25,476 nt of DNA from a virus. Below the pieces are notes generated by a model. It worked only from the letters and a program-made list of their open reading frames with translations. It was not told the origin of the DNA and searched no databases. Position 1 is the stretch's first letter, and the number at the start of each line of letters is the position of its first letter. The DNA lies in the UHGV virus genome UHGV-1800104; one strand, written 5' to 3'. The position numbers were made by a program, and so were the translations under genes. Below are positions 185-14,303 of this stretch, in pieces.

Positions 185-352
185 TGTGGATTCCTCAAAG
201 CGTAAACAACGTATAACAGCGTATGATCTTATAAGCCGAATAGGCTGACAACCACTAGTTGATTAGAAATTGCTTTCTATCGTTATTTCAATAATGAGCT
301 TTTTCATGAAGCCCACTTTTGCGCATAAGTAAATTAATGATAAATGGTACAC

Positions 353-420
353 AATTGGAACCAAAAAGGATGTAAAGGTGCACCAAATTAGTGGTGTATT
401 GGTACACCTTTGGTTCAAGA
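353..420. promoter_or_regulatory. nested imperfect palindrome (ttggaaccaaa...tttggttcaag, with inner ggtgcaccaaat / attggtacacc) between glnS and the partition genes; candidate protein-binding site or bidirectional terminator
   Basis: Inverted repeats are visible by eye. The 11-mer aattggaacca recurs at 1538..1548 upstream of parA, and the 13-mer aaaaggatgtaaa recurs at 4344..4356 upstream of the spanin genes. Confidence 0.3.
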
Positions 421-452: not shown

Positions 453-740
453 TTATTTTGCTTCCTCAGACTCCGCTAACATGAGGATAGCATGGCGGAT
501 CATATTCAATTTGCTGCGATTATGCTTTTTACTTAACGCATCAAGTACTTGGTACTCGTATTCATTGAAACCAACACGAATAGATTTAAAATCACGTGGA
601 GCGTCCTTATCGAGCACTTTGTTGTCTTCTGGTTGCTCACCCGGCACCAAATCAGCCTTACTGGCAAAATCCTCAATTCGGCGTTCAAGATCGGGGTCTT
701 TTACTTCGGGGGCTTTTACCGATTTACGAGGCTTAATCAC
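453..740 (-). CDS. small partition partner protein (ParG/ParB-like, putative centromere-binding), 95 aa
   Basis: GTG start at 740 overlaps the last codons of the upstream ParA gene and is preceded by AAGGAG about 7 nt upstream on the coding strand. Small charged protein directly downstream of a Walker-type ParA, the usual type Ib arrangement. No specific motif recognised. Confidence 0.5.
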   Translation of the reverse strand: MIKPRKSVKAPEVKDPDLERRIEDFASKADLVPGEQPEDNKVLDKDAPRDFKSIRVGFNEYEYQVLDALSKKHNRSKLNMIRHAILMLAESEEAK

Positions 741-1374
741 TTAATAACTCCTTAACCAACATCTGGATTTCACCTTTAGCTTTCCCGTTGTCCATCTCAA
801 CAACGCCCTTCCCTTCAGCCATGCAATCGCGGTAAACCTTACGATCACGAATGATGGTTTTCAGCAACTTCAGTTGCGGATATTCAGCCAGGTACTCTTT
901 GGCCTCATTAGTTTCATTCACAACCGGATTGGATGGGGCCATTGTTAAGACTGCGAACGCCTTAATGCTAGGATTAGGCATCAGGTCCAAAGCCTCTTCA
1001 AACACTTCAACAAAGTGTGCCAGCGTGTCTAAATCTGGTTGAGATGGTCTGAATGGGACCAACACAATATCTGCAGCGGTTATGCCTGTACGCATCTCTT
1101 TGCTATCGCGCCCGGCTGTATCAACAACTACAAATTCATAACGCTTATCCAGATCGAGAAGTGTTTCTCGAATATTACCAAACTTCTGGACACAATGAAT
1201 TACAGGAGAAACCTCTGCCGTGTTACGGTCAGCTGCCCAGCGGGCAGCTGTTCCTTGCTTGTCTGCATCTAGTAACACTACATCCTTATTTGCGCGGGCA
1301 AGCTCCGCACAGATGTTTACGCTTGTGGTTGATTTTCCACAGCCACCTTTTTGGCTGACTACCAATATAATCAT
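733..1374 (-). CDS. parA: ParA/ParF-family partition ATPase (type Ib, deviant Walker A)
   Basis: MIILVVSQKGGCGKSTTSVNICAELA... carries the KGGxGK[ST] deviant Walker A at the extreme N-terminus, and LLDADKQG follows. I place the start at ATG 1374 (GAGG about 7 nt upstream) rather than the TTG at 1404 given in the ORF track. Confidence 0.85.
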   Translation of the reverse strand: MIILVVSQKGGCGKSTTSVNICAELARANKDVVLLDADKQGTAARWAADRNTAEVSPVIHCVQKFGNIRETLLDLDKRYEFVVVDTAGRDSKEMRTGITAADIVLVPFRPSQPDLDTLAHFVEVFEEALDLMPNPSIKAFAVLTMAPSNPVVNETNEAKEYLAEYPQLKLLKTIIRDRKVYRDCMAEGKGVVEMDNGKAKGEIQMLVKELLSD

Positions 1375-1618
1375 ATCCGTTCCTCGGTGTGATTTTGGTA
1401 TCAAAACGGTTCCAGATAAGAGCCTTTTTGATGCGGGACAGGCTCTATAATGGAGTCATGAATGTTTGGCAAAGTATAACATCAATCAGACCAAATACAC
1501 CTTATATTGCATCCTATTTAACACGAAATCAGCCCTAAATTGGAACCAGATACAAAATTGCACCATAACAGCACCTAACTGGTGCCAGATTAACACTAAT
1601 TAGACACCATTAAGGCAT

Positions 1619-1641
1619 AAAAAAGGCTGCAATTTGCAGCC
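1619..1641 (-). terminator. intrinsic terminator downstream of parR
   Basis: Perfect 7-bp stem GGCTGCA/TGCAGCC with a 3-nt loop, followed on the minus strand by a run of six T, about 20 nt past the parR stop. Confidence 0.6.
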
Positions 1642-1661
1642 TTAAACCAGCACATCTTCTG

Positions 1662-2006
1662 TCAATCAGGTAGAGAGTCAGCCAGATTGCGCGCCGACGC
1701 GCTTTTGGCAACAACTTGCTCCTTCACTGGCTCAATGGAGGCAGGGCGCTCCTCAACCGCAGCTGGTAGTTCCAGGAAGGATGCCAGCATTTTTCGGATC
1801 AGCTCCGGGTTATTGTCTTCGGTCAGCAGGGAAGCCAGTAATCCTGGAAGCCTGCTATCGACTTCTCCCAGCGCAAGCCCTGCCAACAATGCGGTTCTTG
1901 CCATATCGCTATGTTTTTTTATCTTCTCGCTCGCCGCCTTTTCATTGGCATAAGCCTCTGGGCGAAGATAAATCATCACTTTCTTACGTTCCTGAGACAT
2001 GGACAT
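1662..2006 (-). CDS. parR: ParR-like centromere-binding adaptor of a type II (ParMR) partition system
   Basis: Sits immediately downstream of parM in the same orientation. Segments RTALLAGLAL and LLASLLTED...ML match my recollection of R1 ParR (RAALTAGLAL, FLLCELLTKE). Start may be the ATG at 2006 or the one at 2000. Confidence 0.7.
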   Translation of the reverse strand: MSMSQERKKVMIYLRPEAYANEKAASEKIKKHSDMARTALLAGLALGEVDSRLPGLLASLLTEDNNPELIRKMLASFLELPAAVEERPASIEPVKEQVVAKSASARNLADSLPD

Positions 2007-2013
2007 TACCTCG

Positions 2014-2970
2014 TTAACCGATTGCTTTCAGGCCATGAACAAGAGCAAGTTGCGGGTCATCCGCCACGAAGAAACGGTCATCACGAATATTAACTTGCTC
2101 GCGAATTGCATCTGCCACCAGCGGTGCACCACCACCGATCACCATGACATGCGTATATCCTTTAAAGTCGCCAATCACATCAAGAACTCGGGTACGCAGA
2201 CGGTCAATGCTTGCGGCAATGGCCTTTTTCACATCACCAATCGCTGATGGGTCATTGATATTGTCGTTCAGATAATCTTCATCGTGGCGGTTAATAATGA
2301 GCTGATCAACATTGTAATTTGACGTTTCGGTATTGGCCCTTGCAAGTGCTTGCCTTACTTCCCTGGTGACCAGTGATACACCAAGATTCGAATCGCCAAA
2401 AACACGGGAAACTGCCGTCATTTGCCCGGCGACCATTGAAACATCAAGGGTAGTTCCACCCAAATCGATGATAAGAACAGAATGGGCAGGGTTCAGATTG
2501 TCGCACAGGCCAATTCCTGCCGGAATAGACTCCGGTCGTACCGTAACTTTCTTAATCGTGAACACATTGCCTTTATTCAGCGTGACGGGGCGCATAAGGC
2601 TGGCTTTCTTGCGCTCGATGTTATCGAGATTGTATTGCGCGTCGTCGTCGTAAAACTCCGCCAGAGGCAGCGTGACCACAATTTCTACTTCCTGCGGCTC
2701 AATACCGCTTGTCAGCAGGGCATGGTGAACAGCCAGGACGTTAAGCGGGCTGTATTGCCATTCCACGTTATTCGTCGGCAGAACATCTGGCGAGATCAAA
2801 TCATACGAATACTTCTCGTCGTCAATGACATAGTTAAACGGCTTGCCAGCACCAAATGTTGCTGACCATCCGCGCTTAAAGCTGTTAGGACTGATGTGAG
2901 TGCGAGTTTCCCCGTCGTGCTCCCACAGCATTTTGATATTGGTTGAACCATCATCGATAAAAATGCGCAT
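2014..2970 (-). CDS. parM: ParM/StbA actin-like plasmid segregation ATPase
   Basis: MRIFIDDGSTNIKMLWEHDG...HISPNSFKRGW...AVHHALLTSG...IIDLGGTTLDVS...YTHVMVIGGGA tracks R1 ParM closely along its whole length. Start placed at ATG 2970 (GGAG about 7 nt upstream) instead of 2994. Confidence 0.9.
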   Translation of the reverse strand: MRIFIDDGSTNIKMLWEHDGETRTHISPNSFKRGWSATFGAGKPFNYVIDDEKYSYDLISPDVLPTNNVEWQYSPLNVLAVHHALLTSGIEPQEVEIVVTLPLAEFYDDDAQYNLDNIERKKASLMRPVTLNKGNVFTIKKVTVRPESIPAGIGLCDNLNPAHSVLIIDLGGTTLDVSMVAGQMTAVSRVFGDSNLGVSLVTREVRQALARANTETSNYNVDQLIINRHDEDYLNDNINDPSAIGDVKKAIAASIDRLRTRVLDVIGDFKGYTHVMVIGGGAPLVADAIREQVNIRDDRFFVADDPQLALVHGLKAIG

Positions 2971-2994
2971 CTTCTTGCTCCACTTCTGAGACAC

Positions 2995-3200
2995 ATTTGA
3001 GAATCAAAATGTAATTTTAAAAGAGAAGCACCCAAAAATCCACACCAAACGAGACAAAAAAGAGCGCTTGTTGAGTTTATTTTGAGAATATCTTAATCAC
3101 CCACTGAATGATGGCCTGATAGTGAGATTTATTTGAGAATGAATTGAGAATACAAAAATATTCCGAAATTTAACTCTCCGTTTGAATGACGAAATAACAA
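2995..3200. promoter_or_regulatory. parC-like centromere/promoter region with repeated TTGAGAAT motifs, also holding the divergent promoter for the forward operon
   Basis: Exact TTGAGAAT at 2997, 3082, 3133 and 3144, with variants at 3071 and 3182. Pairs are spaced 11 bp apart (3071/3082, 3133/3144), i.e. one helical turn, as in R1 parC iterons. Confidence 0.4.
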
Positions 3201-3236
3201 AGTGATGACAATAGGAGGATAACCAGGAGGTGAAGA

Positions 3237-3521
3237 ATGAGCGCAATAGCCACCAGCGACACCCTTTGTTCTGGTCACGGAGGATTTCCGCCGCGACTGG
3301 TAGCTGAAACCGTTCCCTGGTTCACCGTTAACGGTAAGCCAGTTGTTGTAGATGGTGCCATGTTTCCCAGTCACACTGACGGTAACAGTGCACACCCAGG
3401 GGCAGCTGTATCGACGCGAGTATGGTTTTCGATAGGTGGAAAGGGAGTTGTCTGTGTAGGCGATCCGCTTTCTTGTGGTTCTGTTATCGCCAACGGCGAG
3501 GATATTTTTCAGGTTGCATAA
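3237..3521 (+). CDS. PAAR-like small protein (possible spike-tip protein), 94 aa
   Basis: Strong RBS GGAGG about 5 nt upstream. Contains NGKPVVVDG and VCVGDPLSCGSVIANG, resembling the xARVGD...C...G and G.PTV.I.G elements of PAAR proteins, although no literal PAAR tetrapeptide is present. Confidence 0.4.
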   Translation: MSAIATSDTLCSGHGGFPPRLVAETVPWFTVNGKPVVVDGAMFPSHTDGNSAHPGAAVSTRVWFSIGGKGVVCVGDPLSCGSVIANGEDIFQVA

Positions 3522-12425: not shown

Positions 12426-13133
12426 GTGAGTATTTTCAGCAGCGTTGGTAGAACGTTGACCACCGCATTGTCATTTAACACGAAATCATTCACCAGCAAC
12501 CTCATTAGCGACATTCTTGATAAAGCCATATCAGGCGGCGGGGTAAGCGGGAATTACAGTAGCGATATTGCCTACGGGAAAAATATTGTTGCTGCCGCTA
12601 TGCGTATCCGTTACGCCCAGGGGTGGCAGTGGACCGTTGAAGTGGATGGTCTGAACGGCTTCGATATGTTCGTGAAGGATATCACCTACAGCAGTGGGAA
12701 CATCGAGACAGAAAGCAAGGTGATCGGCAGCGTAGAATTCAGCAAGCCAACCTATGTTAGCGCCGGACCGGTCACTATGACCGTGAGGGATACCGAAGAT
12801 GGCAAGATCATGGACTGGTTCAAAGAGCGTCGTTCTCGTGTAACAAATCCTGATGGAACAATAAACCTTCCTCCTGAATATCTGATGAAAATCCGTGTCT
12901 ACCGGGTGACTCAGGACGGCGGAAAAGAACTGGAAGAAGAAATGCGCGTATTTCCTACGCAACTTGGGGAAATCACACGCTCACGTGATCAGGTGTCAGA
13001 GTTCTTGTCATACCCAATCACTTTCCAGAAATACACATCCGCAGGCTCAGGTGTTTCTGCTTTGGTCAACGGTGCCGCTGGCATGGCTACAAGTGCGTTA
13101 AAGGGGGCTGTGAGTGGAGTAATCAAATTCTGA
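12426..13133 (+). CDS. hypothetical virion protein, 235 aa
   Basis: GTG start with GGAGG about 6 nt upstream; last gene of the forward block before the replicon. No family recognised. Confidence 0.5.
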   Translation: MSIFSSVGRTLTTALSFNTKSFTSNLISDILDKAISGGGVSGNYSSDIAYGKNIVAAAMRIRYAQGWQWTVEVDGLNGFDMFVKDITYSSGNIETESKVIGSVEFSKPTYVSAGPVTMTVRDTEDGKIMDWFKERRSRVTNPDGTINLPPEYLMKIRVYRVTQDGGKELEEEMRVFPTQLGEITRSRDQVSEFLSYPITFQKYTSAGSGVSALVNGAAGMATSALKGAVSGVIKF

Positions 13134-13222
13134 ATAGCTTTAATTATGTGTGCTGGAGGGTTGCTCATTTCCCGCCAGCACCCACGCCCTCAACGATAGC
13201 GGGTAGGGAAGGTAGCGCAATT

Positions 13223-13518
13223 TTGAGGGCATTTTTTACATCATCAATTCATCTGTAATGAAGGCATTCTTTACACATTTCAATAATATCAATCAGTTAA
13301 CACAGTGAATGATAATAAAAAAGCGCAATAAGAATGCACGATACGCACGATATTGGTTGAGGGCGATTTTTACATAGTCCTTACATATCAATACGTTATA
13401 TAAAAACACAACTTGCTAATAACAAGATACATGCAATTAAGATGTAAAAATTGCCCTCAATTGCCGATCGTTAAGGGCAAATTCTACACCTTGAGAGGGG
13501 TGTAAAAATTGCCCTTAA
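13223..13518. repeat. iteron array downstream of the initiator gene (about 20-bp units, mixed orientation); candidate copy-control locus
   Basis: Units matching TTGAGGGCAAATCTTACACC: direct at 13223..13242 and 13357..13376, inverted at 13441..13460, direct variant at 13471..13490, inverted at 13499..13518 (overlapping the initiator stop codon). The spacers are AT-rich. Confidence 0.7.
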
Positions 13519-14303
13519 GACTGCTGATAGGTAAATTTTATCCTGGTAACTTTGCCGCCTTCCGTCACCTCTGAGAAGACTATTTTCATTTTTGTATTTT
13601 TTTCAATCTCTGCTACAGCCTTCGTTAAAAAACTTCTCTTAAATTCGGCATACCGCTGATAGCTTTTTGGTAACCCATAACGCTCCCGCATCCATTCGAC
13701 GCCAAGTATGGCAAAGCCGCTTCCATCATCCTTCCTGTACTGGCATAAGGACTCATAAAGCCGCATAGAATAAGGATTTGTAAGGCGAGATACTTCGGTA
13801 AAATTCAGCCTTGTGAATCTCTTATCAAGCAGAGTAAAAAACGGCATGAGATATGGATTAAGATGAATAATGTAAGTCCCGCGCCGTGGTGAATAGGCAT
13901 CCTTAATCATCCAAGGATAAGACTCATAACTGTCTTCTGATTCGGTCGATTCATCAGGGTTATATATCGTAACTTTCTTCTCGCTAAGCCCTGAAATGGC
14001 CTTACGAATATCCTTGCTGGCTTCAGCAGAGGGCAAATTATACATCTCTGCATATTCGTTGACCGTCAACTCACAGGCACCTGAACCAAGAACGCCATCC
14101 TTAGAAGCATAGCGAAGTCTTCCCACCACAATAAACAACAGTCGCTTTTGGTCGCGAGTCAGGTGATAAGCAGCCTCCGTGATCTCATTGGCTTGTGCCA
14201 AACTACGACTAATAGGTGTCGCTGACTCAATCAGGCTGACGGCTTTTGCTGTTAATTCCGCTCTGTTCATAACCCTGTGTGATCCTTCAAATGGTGAGGG
14301 CAA
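13515..14303 (-). CDS. repE: RepE-like (F-plasmid RepFIA-type) iteron-binding replication initiator
   Basis: ITEAAYHLTRDQKRLLFIVV, AEASKDIRKAISGL, SYESYPWMIKDAYSPRRGTYIIHLNPYLMPFF and TNPYSMRLYESLCQYRKDDGSGF closely match F RepE as I remember it. Flanked on both sides by iterons. Start is ATG 14270 or TTG 14303, which lies inside the first iteron. Confidence 0.85.
   Translation of the reverse strand: MPSPFEGSHRVMNRAELTAKAVSLIESATPISRSLAQANEITEAAYHLTRDQKRLLFIVVGRLRYASKDGVLGSGACELTVNEYAEMYNLPSAEASKDIRKAISGLSEKKVTIYNPDESTESEDSYESYPWMIKDAYSPRRGTYIIHLNPYLMPFFTLLDKRFTRLNFTEVSRLTNPYSMRLYESLCQYRKDDGSGFAILGVEWMRERYGLPKSYQRYAEFKRSFLTKAVAEIEKNTKMKIVFSEVTEGGKVTRIKFTYQQS

Follow-up and report, generated by a model that had tools for sequence, protein, structure and literature searches.

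Adjacent type II and type Ib partition cassettes in a D6-like phage-plasmid prophage of Escherichia coli

UHGV virus genome UHGV-1800104, a stretch of 25,476 nucleotides referred to below as the window, carries in its positions 453-3200 a type II ParM/ParR partition cassette and a type Ib ParA cassette side by side. Our preferred reading, which we hold with good confidence, is that these are two autonomous and intact cassettes standing head to tail, both likely working and at least partly redundant as stabilisers of a low-copy prophage, and acquired as cargo by recombination. The window itself comes from a prophage of Escherichia coli, a phage-plasmid that is D6-like and P1-related. The 3-kb partition region is 100% identical to the E. 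coli plasmid NZ_CP027309.1 (93.7 kb, non-mobilizable), has matches in about 120 similar plasmids (E. coli, Salmonella and Shigella; roughly 75-98 kb), and shares 98.5% nucleotide identity over the partition locus with Escherichia phage D6 (MF356679 / NC_050154). This near-identity to D6, together with P1-like tail, capsid and baseplate genes and a RepB gene, places the element among the D6-like (P1g2) phage-plasmids.

The open reading frame (ORF) listing gives four minus-strand genes in 453-3200, transcribed in the order parM, parR, terminator, parA and a gene for a partner of 95 amino acids (aa). The features of the two cassettes are as follows.

2983..3151, minus strand: parC-like centromere/operator, seven 11-bp units with a TCTCA core
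2014..2970, minus strand: parM (stbA), actin-fold segregation ATPase, 318 aa, identified by Pfam, PDB match and motifs
1662..2000, minus strand: parR (stbB), ribbon-helix-helix (RHH) centromere-binding adaptor, 112 aa, identified by Pfam and PDB match
1643-1623, minus strand: intrinsic-terminator-like hairpin ending the parMR operon, AAGGCTGCAA-A-TTGCAGCCTT, a perfect 9-10 bp stem followed by T6
1375..1620, minus strand: type Ib operon control region and candidate upstream centromere/operator, with GGTRY/TGGTRC-like boxes
733..1374, minus strand: parA, short Walker-type partition ATPase of type Ib, ParF-like, 213 aa, identified by Pfam and ParF alignment
453..740, minus strand: small partner (D6 orf61), 95 aa, overlapping parA and without a Pfam or NCBIfam family
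341..415, minus strand: second array, of GGTGYACC/TTGGT-like boxes and including inverted repeat I4, a candidate downstream centromere in a parC2-like position

An earlier, sequence-only reading of this DNA had proposed a type Ib ParA with a small partner beside a type II ParM/ParR operon, in the same orientation and with a terminator between them, and the ORFs, Pfam matches and hairpin bear this out. The gene coordinates it gave were right; the strand, which it left unstated, is minus for all four genes, and its span of 453-3200 needs qualifying, in that the genes end at 2970 and beyond them, as far as 3200, lie parC-like iterons and a promoter region that a divergent PAAR gene shares. Spacing within the operons is tight: parR starts 13 nt past the parM stop, and the partner start overlaps the parA stop by 8 nt, the partner being translationally coupled to parA. 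Between parR and parA lies an intergenic region of 287 bp (1375-1661) with the terminator hairpin at its start, and this hairpin is kept in every relative compared while its flanks diverge.

The type II cassette has, in its sequence, an actin-fold ATPase, an adjacent small RHH adaptor and iterated repeats upstream of parM. ParM matches the Pfam StbA_N (1.8e-69) and ParM C-terminal (3.1e-55) domains and the R1 ParM structures 4a62/1mwk (about 1e-111), with 55% identity to R1 ParM over its full length of 318 aa. It has the phosphate-1 (phosphate-binding) motif DDGSTNIK and keeps D169, which corresponds to R1 D170, a residue essential for ParM function (PMC6519299). ParR matches Pfam Plasmid_stab_B (3.5e-11), its residues 3-74 match the pB171 ParR/StbB structure 2jd3 (E 1.6e-6), and its RHH core is conserved in the alignment with variant alleles. 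Upstream of parM, the iterons form clusters of three (3151-3119), two (3089-3068) and two (3004-2983) around a -10-like TAAAAT at 3019-3014. The iteron octamer TTGAGAAT occurs six times in the window against 1.37 expected, a count that 0 of 100 shuffles reached, and four of the six copies lie no more than 155 bp upstream of parM; moreover, the clustered layout recurs, with drifted flanks, in the loci L009, L011 and L005, which have diverged ParR alleles. The region upstream of parM thus has the classical parC arrangement, with predicted ParR binding and promoter activity. As a side observation, these iterons sit in a 266-bp divergent region (2971-3236) shared with the PAAR/upfC gene, and predicted ParR binding there might also affect PAAR/upfC expression.

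With 213 aa, the ParA of the second cassette falls within the length of about 200-230 aa typical of type Ib and lacks an N-terminal helix-turn-helix, the type Ia ParA of an Enterobacter relative having 401 aa. The annotated parA ATG is preceded by GAGGAA. Pfam assigns the protein to AAA_31, CbiA, MipZ and VirC1, that is, to the ParA/MinD/MipZ/VirC1 P-loop group, and its residues 3-211 align end to end with residues 4-202 of TP228 ParF, the best PDB match (4dzz, E 1e-18). Its Walker A motif is of the deviant form (KGGCGKS), a Walker B-like FVVVDTAG is present, and identity to the par2 ParA of a pB171-type locus is 43%.

The small partner is probably an RHH centromere-binding protein of the type Ib ParB/ParG-like kind, to judge from its homologues and their setting. 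The protein itself has no family match in Pfam or NCBIfam. In an alignment of homologues (40-87% identity), the basic N-terminus (M-V/I-K-R-R) and a C-terminal block, APRDFKxIRVPFNEYEY...RSKLNxIRHA, are conserved and the linker between them varies; the C-terminal block has the look of one strand and then two helices. Pfam RHH_1 is matched by four of nine homologues (best E 0.0021) and a NikA-like family by one (6e-6). The partner is always paired with this ParA family, also beside rep genes in unrelated plasmids, and the two genes form a stand-alone cassette next to rep genes in pACICU1 (Acinetobacter), pRAHAQ02, paIh6 and pS68-1.

Repeat arrays flank the ParA operon on both sides. Upstream, boxes in both orientations stand on either side of a conserved extended -10-like element, TGTTATACT (1481-1473), and downstream the array spans about 75 bp after the partner stop codon; the window has seven TGGTNYA boxes against 0.95 expected. 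Pooled over five non-redundant relatives, GGTAC/GTACC occurs 29 times against 2.1 expected (z=18.6) and TGGTAC 15 times against 0.6, with a box spacing of about 11 bp and enrichment at both positions across relatives (z up to 18-24). In L004, L009 and L011 the downstream arrays are longer and are followed by a terminator, and similar boxes occupy the same two positions in distant cassettes of Aeromonas, Marinobacter, Rahnella, Arsenophonus and Serratia, several of which stand beside a replication gene. Arrays both upstream and downstream are reported for the type Ib loci of pB171, pSM19035 and pESBL (PMC7602700), and the operon described here has the same predicted organisation. On the Marinobacter plasmid (L041, about 3100-3230), four tandem units of roughly 33 bp (CCAAGGTGTATCTCCACCTTGCACGGTGTACTC) with a GGTGTA box stand upstream of the ParA cassette; they may be iterons or an extended centromere.

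The mechanism proposed for this locus, in which we infer DNA binding, autoregulation and stabilisation by each system, would run as follows. ParR dimers would bind the 11-bp TCTCA iterons upstream of parM and repress the promoter embedded among them, while iteron-bound ParR would capture the ends of ATP-ParM filaments, so that the filaments push sister plasmids apart; the terminator would end the parMR operon. Independently encoded downstream, the 95-aa adaptor would bind the GGTAC-like boxes around its own promoter and downstream of the operon and stimulate nucleoid-bound ParA-ATP, by which plasmids would be positioned along the nucleoid. Both cassettes are accessory cargo, picked up and exchanged by recombination at one hot spot, and not remnants of replicon fusion.

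Further evidence that both systems are maintained comes from 25 D6-like loci of E. coli, Salmonella and Shigella, of which 6 are plasmid or phage records and 19 are IMG/VR contigs. The loci L005 and L008 have every gene fragmented, including neighbours such as rdgC; they are for this reason taken to be assembly errors and were left out of the intactness counts. All four genes stand in tandem in 25/25 loci, with ParA and the partner intact in 25/25 and parM in 23/25. Relative to the window, dN/dS is 0.015-0.03 for ParM, 0.07-0.16 for ParR, 0.03-0.14 for ParA and 0.07-0.13 for the partner, and these low values hold even in comparisons with dS near or beyond saturation: all four genes are under purifying selection. 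The sequence-only reading had taken a mutated Walker A motif or a truncated ParM as signs that one system is inactive. Neither is seen, because the four ORFs are intact with their motifs, KGGCGKS included, ParM is full length with the R1 D170 equivalent kept, and dN/dS stays between 0.015 and 0.16.

Several observations nevertheless weigh against reading the locus as two complete and working systems. ParA scores 162 bits against a cutoff of 180 for NCBIfam ParA_partition. For the partner, the best PDB match of its profile, the RHH protein CopG, is not significant (E 0.42), and its AF2 (AlphaFold) monomer model has a pLDDT of 57, with the two C-terminal helices that an RHH fold would have, at 60-72 and 77-94; the homologue search gave close relatives only, the AlphaFold alignment was shallow and the model is of low confidence. 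The type Ib arrays of the window are shorter and more degenerate than those of its relatives, with 8 and 6 loose boxes. In addition, a consensus promoter scan flagged no promoters at the conserved -10-like elements, so that the promoters proposed here are read from conservation. On the type II side, parM is broken by a deletion of 1 bp in two of the 25 loci: L004 (about 2925, alignment column 145) and L022 (about 5214, column 520). In both loci parR, parA and the partner are intact, and the deletions fall in short base runs; they could be sequencing errors in such runs or an early decay of the type II motor, and if real, parMR may be dispensable when the type Ib cassette is present.

Those deletions would also suit a view in which one cassette is a non-functional or decaying relic and the other alone partitions the prophage, as would the apparent loss of parMR from a relative that has a type Ia module and retains a parR fragment (Enterobacter sp. 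pJBIWA008_2), and the small laboratory contribution of one of the two systems on pINV and SCP1 (PMC6519299, PMC13245405). We consider this view improbable: the ORFs of the window are all intact with catalytic motifs, the constraint on every gene persists at saturated dS, the repeats, terminators and -10 elements are conserved, and the frameshifts, lying in short base runs, are possibly sequencing errors.

Another question is whether the ParA-partner pair serves partition at all, or instead regulates copy number or transcription, or supplies an ATPase that positions some other cargo. The partner's want of a family assignment and the score of ParA under the NCBIfam equivalog cutoff leave room for this, and the partner goes by the name 'cop' in the D6-like plasmid pYU39_89, whose partition genes are given as 'cop, parA, stbB and parM' (PMC6799933). 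Yet the same two-gene cassette with box arrays stands beside the replication genes of unrelated plasmids, ParA aligns end to end with ParF and shares its 43% identity with the pB171-type par2 ParA, and the architecture fits published type Ib loci (PMC7602700), all of which makes a role outside partition very unlikely.

Comparison with individual relatives shows that the two cassettes move separately. In L010, parM and parR are 99-100% identical to the window (dS 0.05-0.08), and ParA and the partner are 85% and 76% identical (dS saturated); in L011, ParA and the partner are 96% identical (dS 0.17-0.37), with ParM at 94% and ParR at 58% (dS saturated). This discordant divergence means that each cassette has been exchanged independently by recombination. 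The cassettes occupy a variable cargo site between the methyltransferase gene dmt and PAAR/upfC, which in relatives is empty, holds parMR only, or holds parMR and parA-partner with or without the glutaminyl-tRNA synthetase gene glnS. Like the cassettes, glnS is variable cargo of this hot spot: the window, D6 and L010 have it, and L004, L009 and L011 lack it, the partner there being followed by a terminator and then dmt.

Relatives with only one of the two cassettes, for which the sequence-only reading had suggested a search, do exist, and they extend the series to type Ia modules. Enterobacter p60214CZ_1 and contig IMGVR_UViG_3300009011_000012 carry parMR only at the dmt-PAAR site; elsewhere on that contig lies a P1-style type Ia module, RepB-ParA(401 aa)-ParB. 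Enterobacter sp. pJBIWA008_2 has a type Ia module only, its dmt-PAAR site being otherwise empty; at the dmt-PAAR junction (L036 13552-13716) lies a 55-aa parR-like relic of 40% identity, which suggests that parMR was lost there. The double set of type Ia and parMR, with no type Ib cassette, is thus a feature of Enterobacter D6-like relatives (L031 4433-5781 and L044 1648-5174, both on contig IMGVR_UViG_3300009011_000012, and L080). The RepB-family initiator of the Enterobacter lineage (L036 1-861) has no tblastn match at E<1e-4 in phage D6 (orf42, L081/L082), which points to the plasmid replicon having been swapped between the D6 and Enterobacter lineages along with the partition modules.

These patterns bear directly on the possibility that the second cassette is an escape from incompatibility, kept so that segregation still works while one adaptor-centromere pair is being titrated by another plasmid or phage-plasmid in the cell, the double systems then being stages in an ongoing replacement of partition modules. 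Avoidance of partition incompatibility, one of the explanations offered by the sequence-only reading, is consistent with the independent assortment of the cassettes and with adaptors that diverge more than motors: ParR falls to 58% and the partner to 76% identity, against 94-100% for ParM and 85-100% for ParA. Adaptors and repeats alike outdiverge the motors (ParR 58% against ParM 94% in L011; partner 76% against parM 99.7% in L010), iteron flanks change along with the ParR allele, and relatives show type Ia only, Ia with II, or II with Ib, with one parR relic where parMR appears lost. Partition and replication genes have, furthermore, been proposed to be among those exchanged between phage-plasmids and plasmids, possibly avoiding incompatibility (PMC10879196, PMC13245405). 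The evidence for this explanation is, however, purely comparative, the pair of II and Ib is retained in 25/25 loci and looks settled rather than transient, and the type Ib boxes are alike across partner alleles, so that a change of specificity on that side is weakly supported. We therefore treat it as possible and lean away from it, in favour of two cassettes that both stabilise the prophage.

A more speculative extension, which we think unlikely as a whole, would see stepwise turnover across the P1/D6 supergroup, from type Ia beside rep, through Ia with II, to II with Ib and loss of Ia, with doubly equipped elements as selected intermediates or end points and adaptor-centromere diversification driven by incompatibility with co-resident plasmids and sister phage-plasmids. 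If true, the tandem pair of II and Ib would be a co-adapted, non-redundant unit, for example with dominance varying by host, temperature and plasmid background.

The other history raised by the sequence-only reading, that of a cointegrate whose two cassettes come from two fused replicons, each serving or having served its own, finds nothing in its favour beyond the coexistence of two systems, and is scarcely credible. Only one plasmid replicon type was called (rep_cluster_1704), and in phage D6 orf42 (RepB family, record 45841-46596) is the one plasmid replication gene, alongside the lytic repL; no type Ia partition genes were found in D6 as a whole. The replication gene of the window lies about 10 kb from the cassettes, between tail genes and with no adjoining partition gene, and the cassettes themselves are neighbours in one cargo site, at which relatives have either nothing or a single cassette. 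The window neighbourhood consists of P1-like virion genes, and conserved P1-like phage genes flank the cassettes on both sides. A single replicon and a series of modules in relatives together speak against a cointegrate, and in favour of partition cassettes being gained, lost and swapped as modules at a cargo hot spot.

The closest precedent for the pair is the 'double par locus' of pB171, described in PMC6519299 and PMC7602700, with adjacent loci par1 (parMRC, type II) and par2 (parABC, type Ib). The locus here shares with pB171 the adjacent pairing of type II and type Ib, found there on an E. coli plasmid, and the type Ib arrays upstream and downstream. As pB171-type comparison we used p15648-3 (L042), whose ParR matches the 2jd3 sequence: ParM, ParR and ParA are 42.5%, 32% and 43% identical to those of the window, and the small adaptors of the two loci have no detectable sequence similarity (E 1.1). 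The pB171 operons are divergent, with one shared control region and regulatory cross-talk, and the L042 operons likewise diverge around a shared 228-bp region, whereas the operons here are in tandem on one strand, with a terminator between them and separate repeat and promoter regions. The host element also differs, being a phage-plasmid here, unlike pB171. Judged on sequence, the locus would work like a pB171-style pair placed outside the shared-control architecture of pB171.

Each cassette can also be set beside a singly studied system. Against R1 parMRC, beyond the 55% identity of ParM, the nucleotide-binding motifs are conserved, and 11-bp iterons flank a promoter upstream of parM, which is followed by parR. 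R1 parC has ten iterons (5+5), unlike the seven recognisable ones here (3+2+2), and the PDB search of ParR detected no match to R1 ParR and a detectable likeness to pB171 ParR. TP228 parFGH has, as here, a short ParF-like ATPase and after it a small adaptor, whose flexible tail at the N-terminus and RHH domain at the C-terminus have a probable counterpart in the partner; it differs in that the adaptor here has no significant match to ParG, the repeat boxes are not the same, and the arrays here lie on both sides of the operon.

Walker-type and actin-type systems are known to coexist elsewhere, the Walker-type system of R27 being of type Ia. Both systems are functional and partly redundant or condition-dependent on the single replicons of R27 (Par1 and Par2; PMC13245405) and Shigella pINV (type Ia ParAB and StbAB; PMC6519299). 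On pINV the Walker-type system is of type Ia and the loci are about 90 kb apart, in contrast to the adjacent type Ib and type II cassettes described here. The view of the two systems as a redundant pair, put forward by the sequence-only reading, is plausible. The rarity that it implied is not seen, as the combination of type Ib and type II is reported for pB171 and, in a 2026 survey, for 971 PLSDB plasmids (PMC13245405). D6-like accessions were not found in the supplementary files of that survey, which are possibly incomplete.

Neither is the locus new to annotation: it is already annotated in phage D6, and its arrangement is already known. The D6 record has the same gene order and neighbours, with PAAR/upfC on one side and glnS and dmt on the other, at few substitutions, and labels orf58 StbA-type, orf59 StbB-type, orf60 'possible ParA partitioning function' and orf61 hypothetical. 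In contrast to that labelling, orf60-61 are read here as the two genes of a complete type Ib cassette, flanked by repeat arrays. Since pairs of Walker-type and actin-type systems have been studied since pB171 (2001), the locus matters little as a discovery, and what is added is incremental. One gain is the annotation of D6 orf60-61, made with some confidence, as a whole type Ib cassette that has two repeat arrays; the other is the D6-like family itself, a natural series in which partition modules are gained, are lost and swap alleles at a single cargo site. Such a series could help to test whether double systems provide redundancy or an escape from incompatibility in phage-plasmids, a group under growing surveillance in clinical E. 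coli and Salmonella.

The remaining features of the surroundings are the following.

3237-3521, plus strand: PAAR/upfC tail-tip gene, divergent from parM
1-184, continuing left of the window, minus strand: 5' end of glnS (glutaminyl-tRNA synthetase, D6 orf62), directly downstream of the type Ib cassette
about 13514-14269, minus strand: RepB-family replication gene, about 10 kb from the cassettes, between tail genes and with no par gene beside it

A scan of contigs with the PAAR alignment returned only four Xenorhabdus loci of 52-54% identity, which were uninformative, and searches of the window with Rfam (at the gathering threshold) and ARAGORN gave no matches. Full-length glnS is found at L001 10224-11885. 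Within the window, GC content dips to 0.41 over 13000-14300, coinciding with the RepB-family gene.

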